Origin: a virus | Direction: 5' to 3' (one strand) | IMG/VR virus record: IMGVR_UViG_3300032223_002784 | Span: 1 to 64,000 of that record | Length of the DNA: 64,000 bases | Part shown: one piece after another, positions 9,994 through 18,702 of the stretch | Numbering within the stretch: position 1 is the first letter of the stretch | Layout of the letters: each line of letters begins with the position of its first letter | The notes under the pieces: model-generated | What the model saw: the letters and a program-made list of their open reading frames with translations, nothing else | Databases searched by the model: none | What the model was told of the DNA's origin: nothing | Position numbers and translations under genes: made by a program

Positions 9994-10303
9994 GAATTTT
10001 TTTCAGTTTCTTCCAAACTTCTTGATCTTTATGTGAATTATGTTGCTTATCTGGTCTTCCAAGATCCATATAAACACCACCCCTTACACCCTTTTCTTTA
10101 TTCTCAATTCCTTCTGCATGACATTGTTTAATAACAGGACAACTCAAACAAACTTGATCTATTTGTTTAGCAAGCTCCTTGTCATTTTCATAATCATCGT
10201 AGAACCAATTGATTGACATATTTTTACAGGCTGCTAAGTGATACCACTTTACATCTAGTTCATCTATCCCAAGCTTTTCAAATAAGTTGGGCATATTTAT
10301 CAC
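9968..10303 (-). CDS. whiB: WhiB-family Fe-S transcription factor
   Basis: W-x3-AAC...VCLSCPVIKQC...GVRGG (variant of the GVWGG turn). Confidence 0.88.
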   Translation of the reverse strand: MINMPNLFEKLGIDELDVKWYHLAACKNMSINWFYDDYENDKELAKQIDQVCLSCPVIKQCHAEGIENKEKGVRGGVYMDLGRPDKQHNSHKDQEVWKKLKKIHGKNTIHN

Positions 10304-14368: not shown

Positions 14369-15388
14369 TTATTGGTTTGAGCTACCCTTTGGGCTAGATG
14401 AATTACCATATCCTACTGATGGCTTGCCATCATGTTGTGGAGGGCTATTATAAGTAGATTGCCACCCAGTATCCCCTTCAATTGAGCCATAGTTTGTACC
14501 AGACATCGCATCACCTAGTGGCAGAAATATTCCGTCCCATATAGATGTTGAATCTTTTGTTGGAGTAGGATTTGCTGACTTAGTTACATCTGGTTGATTT
14601 ACCGCAATTGCATTCATAGCTTCCTGTGCATGTTCTTTGGTTGTATAACATCCAATTACCTGCCCTGTACCTGCCTTTAGGATTGCATAGCCACCTTGAC
14701 AGTCTGGAACATTAAATTCAATTTTAAATCCATATCCACCAGATAGAATATCTTTTTCAATTTTATTTTCTTTATTTACTATGGCACGAGACCAGGCATA
14801 ACCTGCATCTCCGCCCCAAGCATTCCACATAATTTTTCCATGTGATGGCTTGTCCCAATCTTTACCCTTTTTATCAACTTCATGACGTGAAAAGAAAGAA
14901 TACATTCTTTTAACTGTATCAAGGGACATTGATCTTCCTGCAACAATATCACTTGCACGACCCCAACCTACAGGAGTTCCTGCACCTGTTGCCATACCAG
15001 CATCTCTCCACTTTAACGCACGACGTGCTGCTGCTTTCATGCCTGCGTTTGGTTGATAACCGCCGTCTGATTTTTTGACGGGAATACAATTAGGAACAGT
15101 TTTGCCATCTTGATCTTTAGTCCCTGCGTATTCATATCCATCCCAGCAAGGTCCTTGACCTTTATCAATACATGATGTGCATTTTTCTGTATCTGAAATA
15201 TAATGATGATCATTTCCTAGATCATCACATCCACAAGTCATACACTTTTTAACATCTTTAACATTAGCATATAATGCAGCAAGTTGATCTTGTGCTTTCT
15301 TTTTAGATGGATGAGTTCCAACCACTTTACCAGTATTAGTTGCAATTACTGCAAATTTATCTCCAACTTGTTTAATATTATATGGCAT
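14369..15388 (-). CDS. multi-module hypothetical protein (probable virion/head-associated)
   Basis: Duplicated module (VVGTHPSKKKAQDQLAALYAN / VIGCYTTKEHAQEAMNAIAVN); PCWDGY...VPNC module; TVKRMYSFFSRH...WGGDAG module. Confidence 0.7.
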   Translation of the reverse strand: MPYNIKQVGDKFAVIATNTGKVVGTHPSKKKAQDQLAALYANVKDVKKCMTCGCDDLGNDHHYISDTEKCTSCIDKGQGPCWDGYEYAGTKDQDGKTVPNCIPVKKSDGGYQPNAGMKAAARRALKWRDAGMATGAGTPVGWGRASDIVAGRSMSLDTVKRMYSFFSRHEVDKKGKDWDKPSHGKIMWNAWGGDAGYAWSRAIVNKENKIEKDILSGGYGFKIEFNVPDCQGGYAILKAGTGQVIGCYTTKEHAQEAMNAIAVNQPDVTKSANPTPTKDSTSIWDGIFLPLGDAMSGTNYGSIEGDTGWQSTYNSPPQHDGKPSVGYGNSSSPKGSSNQ

Positions 15389-15873
15389 TATTGCTCCTTA
15401 TCTGTTTTAATTATATCACTAACTTTACGAGATTTAATACTATTATTAGGTATTACCTCTGCTGCAGGCTTAGTTCCTGCCTTTCTAAACCTAAGAGACT
15501 CCCACAAAGCGTGGGGTAAAGTATGAATGCCGTAGTGTGTTCTATGATGATTTGTGCATAATACTTCAAGATTTCCTGGACTTTCCAGCCATTCAGCAAA
15601 TTCTTGGTCATTTGTAAAATGTAAGCCAAAATACTCTTCTATTTTATGCTTATCAGCATTTGGTATTTGACTAAATTCTACATGTGTGTGGTGTAATTCT
15701 GGTTGACCTCCACATAAATCATCATTAATGACACATTTCCAAAGTCCCGCCTTTTTAATCTTTTTTTTAGCTGCAATAAAGAATTTATAGTTTGGGTCTT
15801 TTTCTCGTGGATCATGTTCTGGAATATGTGCCAGAATTGAAAAAGTCATATTTTGATCATGTGCATCTGTCAT
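15388..15873 (-). CDS. HNH-like (His-Me finger) protein
   Basis: C-x5-C...ELHH...NLEVLCTNHH; start moved to MTDAHD because the track start lies inside tRNA-Gly. Confidence 0.65.
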   Translation of the reverse strand: MTDAHDQNMTFSILAHIPEHDPREKDPNYKFFIAAKKKIKKAGLWKCVINDDLCGGQPELHHTHVEFSQIPNADKHKIEEYFGLHFTNDQEFAEWLESPGNLEVLCTNHHRTHYGIHTLPHALWESLRFRKAGTKPAAEVIPNNSIKSRKVSDIIKTDKEQ

Positions 15874-15894
15874 TATAAATCTATTATACATTAT

Positions 15895-15968
15895 TGGAGC
15901 GAATAGCGGGAATTGAACCCGCACATTAACCTTGGCAAGGTTACGCACTACCACTATGCAATATTCGC
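15895..15968 (-). tRNA. tRNA-Gly(GCC)
   Basis: TAACC-TTGCCAA-GGTTA anticodon arm, GCGAATA acceptor, encoded CCA. Confidence 0.95.
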
Positions 15969-15974
15969 AAAAGG

Positions 15975-16093
15975 GGCTATAGGTAGATATTCCAGCACAG
16001 AATGACTCTGCCCTATCTCCCCGAACTCTTACATGCGGGTACCTATATTTGTTATATGTAACTATACCATTCTAAGGTGTGCTACCTATAGCC
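15975..16093 (-). ncRNA. candidate ~120-nt structured ncRNA between two tRNAs
   Basis: 12-bp perfect closing stem GGCTATAGGTAG/CTACCTATAGCC, plus inner GCAC/GTGC and AGAATG/CATTCT helices. Confidence 0.6.
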
Positions 16094-16096
16094 TTG

Positions 16097-16170
16097 TGTG
16101 GAAGGTCGGACTTGAACCGACGATTACCGAATTATGAGTTCGGGGCTTTAACCAACTAAGCTACTCCCAC
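16097..16170 (-). tRNA. tRNA with CAT anticodon (Ile2 or elongator Met)
   Basis: CCGAA-CTCATAA-TTCGG arm; lacks the initiator GGG/CCC anticodon stem. Confidence 0.9.
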
Positions 16171-16178
16171 TTATTTTA

Positions 16179-16421
16179 TTAAGCGTGAGCATCCCCCACT
16201 AATTTGTTCTCTATTAACTTATCTCTTTCATCAACAATTTCATATGCAAAGTTTACTAATGCTGCTTCATTGCGGTTATAGTGATGACCACAAAACATCA
16301 ATTCTCCATTAACACCTTTAATAAGAACTAAGGCTTCAGCAGAACATTGATCACAACGATCAATAGGCCCTAAAATATATTTCTTTTCTTCTGATACTTC
16401 TTGTTCTACTGTCATATTCAT
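16179..16421 (-). CDS. hypothetical actinobacterial-type zinc-finger protein
   Basis: DRCDQC-x-A-x-A...LMFCGHH. Confidence 0.75.
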   Translation of the reverse strand: MNMTVEQEVSEEKKYILGPIDRCDQCSAEALVLIKGVNGELMFCGHHYNRNEAALVNFAYEIVDERDKLIENKLVGDAHA

Positions 16422-16456
16422 AATTATACTCTCTCTGTTAGGTTATTGGTAATTTG

Positions 16457-16529
16457 CTGGGGTGGTAGGACTCGGACCTACGACATTCCGATTAACAGTC
16501 GGACGCTCTGCCAGCTGAGCTACACCCCA
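16457..16529 (-). tRNA. tRNA-Asn(GTT)
   Basis: TCCGA-CTGTTAA-TCGGA arm; TGGGGTG/CACCCCA acceptor; promoter TTGACA-N18-TAGAAT at 16539-16568. Confidence 0.93.
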
Positions 16530-16536
16530 ATACTGC

Positions 16537-16824
16537 TTATTCTATATTACCATTATTTCTTTTGTCAAACATATCCAAGATATCTTGTGGAGTATCAATC
16601 ATTCTACGCTGTGCTTCAAACTTACCCAATTCAACAATTTCTGATGCAATAGTTCCCATCATATCAATAAGACCTTGTGCATAACGTTTGTCTTTTGAAT
16701 CTACATCTTCAATTTCTTTATTCATGTTTACTACAGATTTTACAAAATAATCACACAATTGCGTCAAAGAGATATAAATATCTTCTTCATTATCAATCGT
16801 TTTCATTGTTCCATTTGCTAGCAT
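16537..16824 (-). CDS. hypothetical protein
   Basis: 95-aa ORF with an AAAGGA SD. Confidence 0.7.
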   Translation of the reverse strand: MLANGTMKTIDNEEDIYISLTQLCDYFVKSVVNMNKEIEDVDSKDKRYAQGLIDMMGTIASEIVELGKFEAQRRMIDTPQDILDMFDKRNNGNIE

Positions 16825-16860
16825 TTCTATCCTTTGTTAGTAGTTATAGACTGTAGTCTA

Positions 16861-18702
16861 CTATAGAATTCTAAAGCTGTCAACAGGGATTTCATCTTCA
16901 TCATCTTCCAGCCCCATATATTCACGCAAGTTTGAGGGCATAACTGGTCTATCTGGCATCTTAATGGTTCCTTTTAATCTGGCATCAGATTCTTTCTTTA
17001 ATTGCTCAATCTCATCAGCAAAGACACCATCATAAGAGTAGATCTCAACCTCTTGGTCAGCATCTGGAGGGGTCAATGCAATAGCATTGTAAACAGCCCC
17101 ACAAACAGCGTCAGAAAGGTCCTTAGAGCCCTTTCTAGGGTGATCTACCTTATCCTTTACAATTCTTAGCTGTAACAACTCATCTATAAGTAATTGAATA
17201 TGTGGTCCATGCAATCTTTCTTCAGTTAAAGTAAGAGACATGTCTTCATAATGCTTTTTAGCAACTGAAAGTAATTCAGTATTGATTCCATTGGCTTTTA
17301 ATTGCTGCATCATATCATGTGAATTCCAACGGTCAAATGTAACCATCTTTAAATTAAAACCACGTTGCCTTAAACTAATTATATAATCTTTAACTTCTGT
17401 AAAATCTACAGACCTTGATGCTGTAGGTGTCCAATATCTTACTGCATCTATAATAACTCTGGGTGCTGATTCTTTATATTTATCGCCAATCTTCATTGTT
17501 ACCCACCCGCCAACATGGCTTAGTGCTACGGCACAATGGTCATGCTTTTGAGCAAGGTCAACGTGCACAAAATATGTTTTTTCTGGATCTGGTTTAAAGT
17601 CATCATCAAATCTGCCATAACTATCTACACCTTGCTTTGGATTGGAAAAAGCTTTTTCAATTACGACTCTATTCTTAAAGAACGCATCAGTAGCATCTGG
17701 TGGCATGCAAGCAAAACGAGACAATGCATCCGTTGGGTCTGAATAAAAGTCAATAGTAAAATCTTCAATCGTTCTTGTTGGATTAATATCCCATGTTGGT
17801 CTTTTTAGGGCAAACATTCTAGGGACTTTGTAGGATATGATGTGATCTTCTTCCCACTCAATCTCAAATTCATTTCCAACCGTTCCATCTGGCAAATCTG
17901 GATCAACTTTAAATCTATGATGTCTAAGAACTACTTCTTTCTCCGCTACCGCTTCATTATATTTTTGCTGAATATAATCCATTTTAAAGCGTGGGAATGA
18001 AAGTAAAATTACTTTTCCAAAATCTGGAAAACGTGAATTAACTGAAGCACGATACATCTTGTAAATAGACGATGCAGTTTTAGCTTGTGCATGACCAGAT
18101 GTTGATTCAAGTTCAAAACCTGAAATTTCGTCAAGAATAATTACAATAACGTTATATCCTTCCCATGATTCACTTTCTGAGTGACCTGAGTGAACTGTAA
18201 TTGATTTATCAAATTCAACCATATTGGCTTTTGGAATATATTTTCCTTGGAACCAAGGAGACCTAGTAATGCGTTGATTAAATCCTTTAAAGAAAACTCG
18301 GTTAGCCTGTACTGCGTTAATAGCAATGTTAATAATATCAATGGCATCCCCTGGAGGCTTTCCATAATAAACTGCTGGATCTGCTAAACATAATAATAAA
18401 TGCACTACATAAGCACAAGCAATAGTAGATGTATAGTCTTTTCCAGAACCCTTTCCAAGTTGTAGAATAACTTCACTACAAGTTTGCTTCCAAATCTTTT
18501 CGCCTTCTTCTGGGCCATAAAGTTTTATTAATGTGTCTCTTTTATAAACTTGGGTGGAAGCACGAATCATTTGATATTGGTATTCGGATAATGGTGGTAG
18601 CCCTAGATATTCTTTATCTGTTACAAATTGTTCAATTGTAACAGGCTTTTCTGAAAATTCATCACCTTCAAGTGCATCAATGAAAGCACTAAAATCAGCC
18701 AT
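16861..18702 (-). CDS. terL: terminase large subunit
   Basis: Walker A LGKGSGKD, Walker B IILDE, RNase-H-like nuclease HVDLA...TFDRW...DHP-x2-GSKDLSDA. Confidence 0.93.
   Translation of the reverse strand: MADFSAFIDALEGDEFSEKPVTIEQFVTDKEYLGLPPLSEYQYQMIRASTQVYKRDTLIKLYGPEEGEKIWKQTCSEVILQLGKGSGKDYTSTIACAYVVHLLLCLADPAVYYGKPPGDAIDIINIAINAVQANRVFFKGFNQRITRSPWFQGKYIPKANMVEFDKSITVHSGHSESESWEGYNVIVIILDEISGFELESTSGHAQAKTASSIYKMYRASVNSRFPDFGKVILLSFPRFKMDYIQQKYNEAVAEKEVVLRHHRFKVDPDLPDGTVGNEFEIEWEEDHIISYKVPRMFALKRPTWDINPTRTIEDFTIDFYSDPTDALSRFACMPPDATDAFFKNRVVIEKAFSNPKQGVDSYGRFDDDFKPDPEKTYFVHVDLAQKHDHCAVALSHVGGWVTMKIGDKYKESAPRVIIDAVRYWTPTASRSVDFTEVKDYIISLRQRGFNLKMVTFDRWNSHDMMQQLKANGINTELLSVAKKHYEDMSLTLTEERLHGPHIQLLIDELLQLRIVKDKVDHPRKGSKDLSDAVCGAVYNAIALTPPDADQEVEIYSYDGVFADEIEQLKKESDARLKGTIKMPDRPVMPSNLREYMGLEDDEDEIPVDSFRIL

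Follow-up and report, generated by a model that had tools for sequence, protein, structure and literature searches.

Results

A structured element within a phage tRNA array

The window, by which we mean the whole 64,000-nucleotide stretch analysed here, is part of a 91,984-bp virus record (IMG/VR) and carries six tRNA genes, all on the minus strand (ARAGORN, Rfam). The large terminase gene lies on the same strand, ~700 nt upstream of a spacer that is read in the order tRNA-Met, element, tRNA-Gly (Table 1). An earlier note made from the letters of the window had described a discrete element filling this tRNA-tRNA spacer, and annotation of the two tRNA genes bears this out (15969-16095). Because both flanking tRNAs are on the minus strand, however, the RNA is the reverse complement of the strand read in that note. 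Covariance-model search finds one copy of the element in the window and in the whole 92-kb phage record.

A sigma-70-like promoter ahead of tRNA-Asn is the likely start of a transcript carrying the tRNA array together with the element. Between this promoter and the element a terminator-like site was not found, and a scan of 15300-17000 returned neither a terminator-like site nor a plus-strand promoter reading into the element. The array also contains the gene of a small DUF7455 protein, which could be a candidate RNA- or zinc-binding partner of the element. Relatives retain a gap of ~290-360 nt that matches the position of this gene.

Table 1. Features of the window around the anti-helix-69 element, with example loci of the related architectures
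Feature	Position	Strand	Remarks
terL	16861-18702	minus	Upstream of the tRNA array
Sigma-70-like promoter TTGACA-18-TAGAAT	16539..16568	minus	11/12 matches; upstream of tRNA-Asn
tRNA-Asn(GTT)	16456..16529	minus	First gene of the array downstream of terL
DUF7455 protein (phrog_1720)	16179-16421	minus	80 aa, CxxC...CGHH; between tRNA-Asn and tRNA-Met
tRNA-Met(CAT)	16096..16170	minus	Directly upstream, 3' end abuts element; ARAGORN and Rfam
Spacer, anti-helix-69 RNA element	15969..16095	minus	127 nt; structured core 15975-16093
P1 closing stem, 5' strand (GGCUAUAGGUAG)	16082..16093	minus	Perfect pairing with 15975-15986
Anti-helix-69 block CCUUAGAAUGGUAUAGUUAC	16058..16077	minus	Complements 23S rRNA nt 1910-1929 (E. 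coli numbering)
P2 hairpin UAUA[GUUACA]UAUA	16053..16066	minus	Loop GUUAC complements G1910-C1914 of helix 69
P3 hairpin CCCG...GUAAGAGU...CGGG	16020..16039	minus	Fold and covariation
3' module GGCAGAGUCAUUCUGUGCUGGAAU	15989..16012	minus	Local hairpin P4 and motifs CAUUC-GUGC-GGAAU
P1 closing stem, 3' strand (CUACCUAUAGCC)	15975..15986	minus	Followed by CCUUUU, then tRNA-Gly
tRNA-Gly(GCC)	15895..15968	minus	Directly downstream of element; ARAGORN and Rfam
phrog_2859 ORF	14369-15388
WhiB gene	10073-10246
Type II, examples	L083:2500-2640; L092:3340-3460
Type III, examples	L199:1859-1940; L205:1900-1970; L178:3041-3130; ~30 other loci

The element is non-coding, as had been noticed, since AUG GUA is followed at once by the stop codon UAG. 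Nor does it form a cloverleaf: ARAGORN and Rfam detect the flanking tRNAs only. In the closing stem P1, RNA positions 3-14 pair with 110-121 in 12 bp with zero mismatches. The spacer as a whole folds with a minimum free energy of -39.1 kcal/mol (z = -2.7), and one of 200 shuffles folds equally well, a modest single-sequence signal. In the predicted fold GUUACA forms a hairpin loop and UAGAA an internal loop, and about half of the block that is complementary to helix 69 (H69) of 23S rRNA is sequestered within the element's own helices.

The element recurs as a member of terL-linked tRNA arrays

We fetched 80 terL-related viral loci and compared the spacer with them by blastn, which recovered homologues down to ~75% identity, always downstream of terL and on the same strand. 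A covariance model, R1, built from 19 close relatives finds 55 elements in the terL-linked loci and matches the window at 15972-16095 with 127.6 bits (E = 1.9e-28); an independent pattern scan yields ~51 unique stem-closed elements. In ~50 related phages, 0-2 nt separate the start of the element from the tRNA upstream, and its end usually lies 0-5 nt from a second tRNA downstream. The upstream neighbour may be Met, Gln, Leu, Ile or Asp and the downstream one Gly, Gln, Ser, Pro or Thr, and because the neighbouring tRNAs differ between loci, the element behaves as one more gene of the array. This flush placement beside tRNAs supports the earlier suggestion that tRNA processing would release it. 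The element stands first in the array at three loci (L140, L159, L192), follows the terL stop codon with no tRNA nearby at others (L040-42, L072, L104), and is also without a tRNA neighbour in L158. An 82-nt short form occurs in L019 and others.

One relative has a 1.7-kb insertion between tRNA-Leu and the element (L007:6859-8565) that encodes an NAD-dependent epimerase/dehydratase and a partial UDP-glucose/GDP-mannose dehydrogenase-like protein. The array thus accepts cargo genes.

Covariation supports a folded RNA on the tRNA strand

Among 39 distinct homologues, each of the 12 P1 pairs has changed at both of its positions. Paired cells make up 98%, a share that drops to 25-49% if the partner strand is offset as a control. 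As the 39-sequence alignment was fitted to the model, the stem was also measured independently with G·U and A·C allowed equally, which gave 691 Watson-Crick pairs, 22 G·U and 7 A·C, with all seven A·C pairs at the edges or in spurious extensions of the helix. Because G·U outnumbers A·C, we place the functional fold on the tRNA strand, and the internal hairpins likewise carry G·U pairs on that strand. Gene context and these wobbles together make the functional strand the one that is antisense to rRNA, as described below.

The inner helices vary in their support. The second pair of P2 covaries (A-U in 29 homologues, G-C in 7, U-A in 1), giving the variants UAUA/UAUA, UGUA/UACA and UUUA/UAAA; P3 is 85% paired, with change on both sides in 3/3 pairs; and the local hairpin P4 shows some covariation. 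Several helices proposed in the earlier note can be judged against this alignment. Its perfect 12-bp closing stem ends exactly where it was drawn and covaries throughout, and its CCCG/CGGG hairpin is kept in the family with some covariation. The GTTA/TAAC hairpin is not conserved, the conserved hairpin being UAUA/UAUA with the loop GUUACA. The GCAC/GUGC and AGAAUG/CAUUCU helices can be drawn in the window copy, but their positions are invariant or change without compensation; for that reason, and because a covarying local hairpin competes with them, they remain unproven. The broader claim of a conserved non-coding RNA with paired ends stands, and we regard the element as a real, conserved, folded RNA with near certainty.

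We define this form, type I, by four features that the window copy shares: a closing stem of 11-14 bp; the core CUUAG-N4-6-U-N-UAGUUAC a few nucleotides past its 5' strand; a GUGC(A/U) motif ahead of its 3' strand; and a strand in common with the adjacent tRNAs and terL.

The invariant core is antisense to helix 69 of 23S rRNA

The core that does not vary, CUUAGGAUGGUAUAGUUAC, is the reverse complement of nt 1910-1929 in 23S rRNA, a segment made up of the H69 loop, the 3' strand of this helix and CCUAAG. No member of the family differs in the columns C-U-U-R-G, U-G, U and U-A-G-U-U-A-C. By sequence, then, the conserved core is antisense to H69, a relation that the functional reading in the earlier note had missed and that changes the likely function of the RNA.

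The wider likeness to rRNA is well above background. Local alignment of type I and type II elements (the latter described below) with antisense actinobacterial 23S gives z = 7-9 over dinucleotide shuffles, and z = 7.1 for the window copy. With nhmmer, a permuted family profile searched against a complete rrn operon hits H69 only, on the antisense strand (E = 0.001), and blastn-short of the whole window against the rrn operon finds no further rRNA-like stretch. Predicted duplexes with H69 have energies between -26 and -39 kcal/mol, whereas those of shuffles lie at about -8 to -11; the 26-nt block of the window copy gives -25.6 kcal/mol, compared with -8.3 +/- 2.5 for shuffled blocks. The window copy departs from the complement by one A·C mismatch (GAAUGG, not GGAUGG) and one bulged A. 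Every type I or II copy is one nucleotide short of perfect antisense, so that one A of the H69 loop would bulge.

A scan of the viral collection for the core pattern returned >100 loci. By comparison, the 19-mer CTTAGGATGGTRTAGTTAC had one match only in 596 Gb of prokaryotic sequence, taken as one genome for each of 185,579 species. This sole cellular match (L196) is a 619-bp contig that is part of a 23S gene, in which the motif is the reverse complement of the rRNA. The contig is 97% identical to Tsukamurella 23S and hence actinobacterial; it is binned in a Parasphingorhabdus MAG (L196:1-619), probably as a binning contaminant. Compared with the universal 9-nt loop, its H69 loop lacks one A, and if that short loop is real, the phage 19-mer would be its perfect complement.

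Three architectures share the anti-H69 core

The complement of the H69 loop and of CCUAAG is common to three architectures. Type I, represented by the window copy, is closed by a stem and lies flush with tRNAs. Type II (L083, L092, L093, L114, L154, L168, L174 and L188) is placed after a phrog_2859 gene, of the same PHROG as the window ORF in Table 1, and before tRNAs. It has another covarying stem of 13 bp (for example CCCAUAUGCCAGC/GCUGGCAUAUGGG), which encloses, in order, a part ending in CAUUCGUGCAG, a short linker and CUUAGGAUGGUGUAGUUACC. Apart from a deletion of helix 71, this arrangement runs colinear to antisense 23S between nt ~1972 and 1908.

In type I the order of blocks is permuted, with the H69 block first and CAUUC-GUGC-GGAAU last, and P1 occupies the place of the type II linker. 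The CAUUC-GUGC-GGAAU motifs resemble antisense 23S nt 1962-1972 and 1938-1942. In one subfamily of type I (subfamily C), the part 3' of the H69 block can be aligned over 51-53 columns with antisense 23S ~1962-2012, and in the type II member L092 a further 36 columns match antisense 23S to ~nt 2005 (z = 7.5). Taken together, these stretches of 36-53 columns score z = 3.7-7.5, in every case with the H69 block masked. Under the same masking, the 3' module of the window copy alone, which has diverged, has no significant likeness to rRNA. Judged by its block order, type I is a circular permutation of the type II arrangement, and the permutation is statistically supported because the stretch found in subfamily C lies 5' of H69 in antisense rRNA.

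Type III was sought with an E. coli-type variant of the pattern, which found 59 loci, one of them a real rRNA gene. It is a bare hairpin 1-6 nt past the stop codon of a major head gene (phrog_3922 or phrog_1623), followed by an intrinsic terminator, and in 33 distinct contexts it lies on the mRNA strand each time (33/33). Its invariant parts are CUUAGG and (G)UUAUAGUUAC. The stretch that separates these two is paired to a 3' arm that covaries, and the two middle positions of the hairpin follow the local stem, not host rRNA. Several copies carry the exact 20-nt antisense of the common H69 sequence. Completeness estimates indicate that the type III contigs are fragments of large phages, not T7-like ones.

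Because related forms carry further stretches colinear with antisense 23S, to ~nt 2012, we conclude that the origin of the family was very probably an inverted fragment of host rDNA. The element in the window is type I of an apparently undescribed rRNA-derived, H69-antisense RNA family of actinobacterial and other large phages.

Match to the presumed host

The WhiB gene of the phage points to an actinobacterial host. The 3' strand of H69 reads CCAUCC in the actinobacterium Tsukamurella, and type I and II cores read GGAUGG, its complement; in Bacillus, Azospirillum, Hymenobacter, Deinococcus and Ralstonia, taken to represent five other phyla, the same strand reads CGGUCC. The host-type sequence is here defined by one Tsukamurella operon together with L196. 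Two type III contigs that encode WhiB carry GGACUG or GGACGU at the core. Covariation of the stem-complement positions with the host therefore holds in types I and II but fails in type III, and we do not claim it.

A record labelled as a 2750-bp 'E. coli plasmid' (L198, NZ_AP027888.1) contains a 23S fragment whose H70-H71 segment, CCCGCACGAAAGG, matches Bacillus and Deinococcus; proteobacterial and Bacteroidota records read CCUGCACGAAUGG there. This record may be misassembled or mislabelled.

Comparison with known RNA families

Searched with Rfam 15 at the gathering threshold and at E<=10, the spacer returns the flanking tRNAs only, so the element is as unassignable to a family as it had first appeared. 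The Y-RNA-like and 6S-like analogies proposed for it find no support, with no Rfam match at E<=10 and no Ro/TROVE gene in the phage record. Y RNA/YrlA with Ro (Rsr) resembles the element in size, long terminal stem and phage occurrence, but the element lacks a tRNA-like domain, and PF05731 is absent from the 92-kb record (86% complete). 6S RNA is a rod of ~180 nt with a central bubble resembling an open promoter; the element is a multi-hairpin RNA of 127 nt and has no Rfam match to it. The tRNA and tRNA-like clan (RF00005) has no match within 15969-16095 at E<=10, and ARAGORN reports the flanking tRNAs only. Nor is there an Rfam match to phi29-type pRNA (the phage is tRNA-rich, >92 kb and has a conventional TerL) or, at E<=10, to self-cleaving ribozymes (hammerhead, twister, pistol, hatchet, hairpin, HDV-like).

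The closest counterparts in position are rnaC and rnaD of phage T4 (species 1 and 2 RNAs), which are likewise stable small RNAs inside a phage tRNA cluster (139 and 119 nt) and for which, to our knowledge, no function has emerged in 50 years. Since rnaD (L259:2054-2172; T4 71053-71171) starts 1 nt past tRNA-Arg, it appears to be released by tRNA processing. The two are positional analogues only, without kinship in sequence or structure: R1 finds no match in the T4 tRNA region (69000-75000), rnaC and rnaD lack the anti-H69 motif and any significant rRNA complementarity, and rnaC has a tRNA-like T-arm (CCGGGUUCGAAUCCCGG), which the window element does not.

Two further comparisons concern antisense action. 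Lambda OOP, CopA/CopT and ColE1 RNA I are short antisense RNAs rich in stem-loops that begin pairing loop to loop, OOP being phage-encoded and acting by duplex formation. Like the element, they expose 5-7 nt complementary to the target in the loop of a hairpin, but their targets are mRNAs or primer RNAs from the same locus, whereas the putative target of the element is a host rRNA encoded elsewhere. The snoRNAs and the archaeal C/D and H/ACA guides share with it 10-20 nt of antisense to conserved rRNA; the element has neither box C/D nor H/ACA motifs and no Rfam match to them, and we know of no guide-RNA partner proteins in bacteria or in the window phage.

Discussion

We propose that the element is a stable RNA, excised from the tRNA array, that acts by pairing with helix 69 of host 23S rRNA, a proposal to which we give about an even chance. 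RNase Z or 3' exonucleolytic trimming of tRNA-Met would free its 5' end, and the RNase P cut at the 5' end of tRNA-Gly would define its 3' end. The product would be an RNA of ~125 nt with a 2-nt 5' overhang and a ~6-nt 3' overhang on the 12-bp stem, a paired-end geometry that should resist exonucleases. Hairpin and internal loops are the usual nucleation sites of natural antisense RNAs, and the GUUAC(A) hairpin loop and the CUUAG internal loop could nucleate pairing with H69 here. Its target could be H69 in free 50S subunits, from which the loop protrudes to form the intersubunit bridge B2a, or nascent 23S rRNA. The m3-pseudouridine at position 1915 of mature H69 is incapable of Watson-Crick pairing, which favours immature rRNA as the target.

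Two outcomes can be envisaged, both speculative. Binding to the 50S subunit might block or modulate subunit joining or recycling, and in type III this could happen in cis, directly after termination on the capsid mRNA. Alternatively, pairing might mark nascent, unmodified 23S rRNA for decay, either by blocking the folding of domain IV or by creating an RNase III substrate. This second outcome would fit type II and subfamily C, whose antisense stretches are longer, as well as the inability of m3-pseudouridine 1915 to pair. Genes for RtcB, RNA ligase and RNase III are absent from the phage record, so any nuclease involved would have to be the host's. Against the first outcome, a phage needs working ribosomes, and an inhibitor of subunit joining is not obviously useful to it. 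That types I-III form a widespread class of phage RNA aimed at H69, exerting RNA-only control of subunit joining and recycling or of rRNA decay, is a more tentative proposition, to which we give somewhat less than even weight.

That H69 would be reachable by antisense is suggested by analogy with a synthetic agent: PMC12916000, citing Kulik et al. (2017), includes among antibacterial antisense agents a 13-mer PNA directed against H69 of E. coli. This PNA targets the same 23S hairpin and is listed as antibacterial in E. coli K12; it is artificial and unstructured, whereas the phage RNA is natural and folded and has additional modules.

Other readings of the conserved core were weighed against pairing with H69. 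The likeness to rRNA might reflect ancestry only, with the core now binding a protein or ligand and no longer pairing with 23S rRNA; we think this unlikely, although it would accommodate a core partly buried in the element's own helices, type III central positions that follow local pairing and not rRNA, and the gene of a small Cys/His protein (DUF7455) within the same tRNA array. What speaks against it is that, across three unrelated architectures, the invariant part is the exact complement of the H69 loop and CCUAAG while the rest has drifted, and that no co-occurring RNA-binding protein was identified. A role in cis, as a processing or stability module for RNase P, RNase Z or RNase E whose excised product has no function, seems to us distinctly unlikely. 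Other tRNAs of the same arrays are joined by 0-5 nt without such a module, some members (for example L040-42, L072, L104 and L158) have no tRNA neighbour at all, and an aid to processing would not require an invariant 19-nt core antisense to rRNA. The flush contact with tRNAs, a 12-bp stem of the length of an acceptor/T-arm minihelix, and the position of type III at mRNA 3' ends beside terminators are the features that such a module would explain.

The two remaining alternatives would place the function elsewhere than in the antisense RNA. If the opposite strand were the functional one, it could mimic helices 69-71 in the sense orientation and, as a decoy, titrate either a factor that binds H69 or a toxin that cuts this region. 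The mycobacterial toxin MazF-mt6 cuts UU/CCU at 1939-1943, and such a decoy would be in keeping with the counter-defence logic that has been proposed for tRNA arrays of phages. Watson-Crick stems are possible on either strand, but the excess of G·U over edge-only A·C pairs (22 vs 7) is on the tRNA strand, as are the G·U pairs of the internal hairpins; every gene nearby is on the minus strand, as is every promoter-like site, with no plus-strand promoter into the element; and type III copies lie on the mRNA strand. We consider a decoy very improbable. Of still smaller probability, in our judgement, is a site acting at the DNA level for a homing endonuclease or for rrn recombination, overlapping the I-CeuI site in 23S rDNA. 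The sense sequence TAACTATAACGGTCCTAAGGTAGCGA is what we take to be the I-CeuI recognition site, and phage tRNA clusters do house homing endonucleases, for example segB in T4. However, the site is interrupted by a 1-nt deletion in type I and II copies, where its GGTAGCGA half is also missing, and the compensatory changes, together with the asymmetry of G·U pairs, show that RNA folding is under selection. The only insertion adjacent to an element, that in L007, encodes an epimerase and a dehydrogenase and no endonuclease; we considered a homing-endonuclease neighbour there and rejected it on finding these sugar-nucleotide enzymes.

Several more specific identities for the core were tried and set aside. 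An extended -10 promoter (TGnTATAGT) is contradicted by the -11-equivalent position, which varies (A, G, U) and covaries with its downstream partner, and an SP6/T7-type phage promoter (TTAGG...TATAG) by a spacing that is 1-2 nt off and by type III contigs that are not T7-like. Resemblances to an L11-binding GTPase-centre mimic and to loop B of the hairpin ribozyme are likenesses at the level of words only, not colinear with the element and without a model match; in the latter case, which concerns GGUAUAGUUAC, the equivalent of the catalytic A38 also varies and covaries with its pairing partner. An RNA-repair splint was rejected because none of the enzymes RtcB, RNA ligase and RNase III is encoded in the phage record.

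The use of tRNAs, ribosomal proteins and protein modifiers by phages to reprogram translation is well known. Conservation of helix 69 is universal, and the helix is essential for subunit association, decoding, termination and recycling. Our data suggest that this phage group probably makes a previously undescribed ribosome-directed RNA: we found no phage RNA that targets rRNA or H69 in Rfam 15 or in full-text searches of the literature, and a catalogue of 10,006 csRNAs (PMC10690425) may hold the motif anonymously. If this reading of the element is true, it would bring to light a new level of conflict, or of cooperation, between virus and host at the ribosome and provide the first functional lead for RNAs at such positions in phage tRNA clusters. 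The family would also offer a clear case of a fragment of an rRNA gene turned into a regulatory RNA, natural circular permutation included. Since helix 69 is already a target of drugs as well as of PNA (PMC12916000), the phage RNA could in addition serve as a natural scaffold for antisense antibacterials.

The arrays themselves show a further variation. Many of the relatives (L002-L036 and L050-L075) carry a tRNA-Ile with the anticodon UAU, which is rare in bacteria, and across these same loci the order and content of the tRNA array vary widely, with the anti-H69 element kept.
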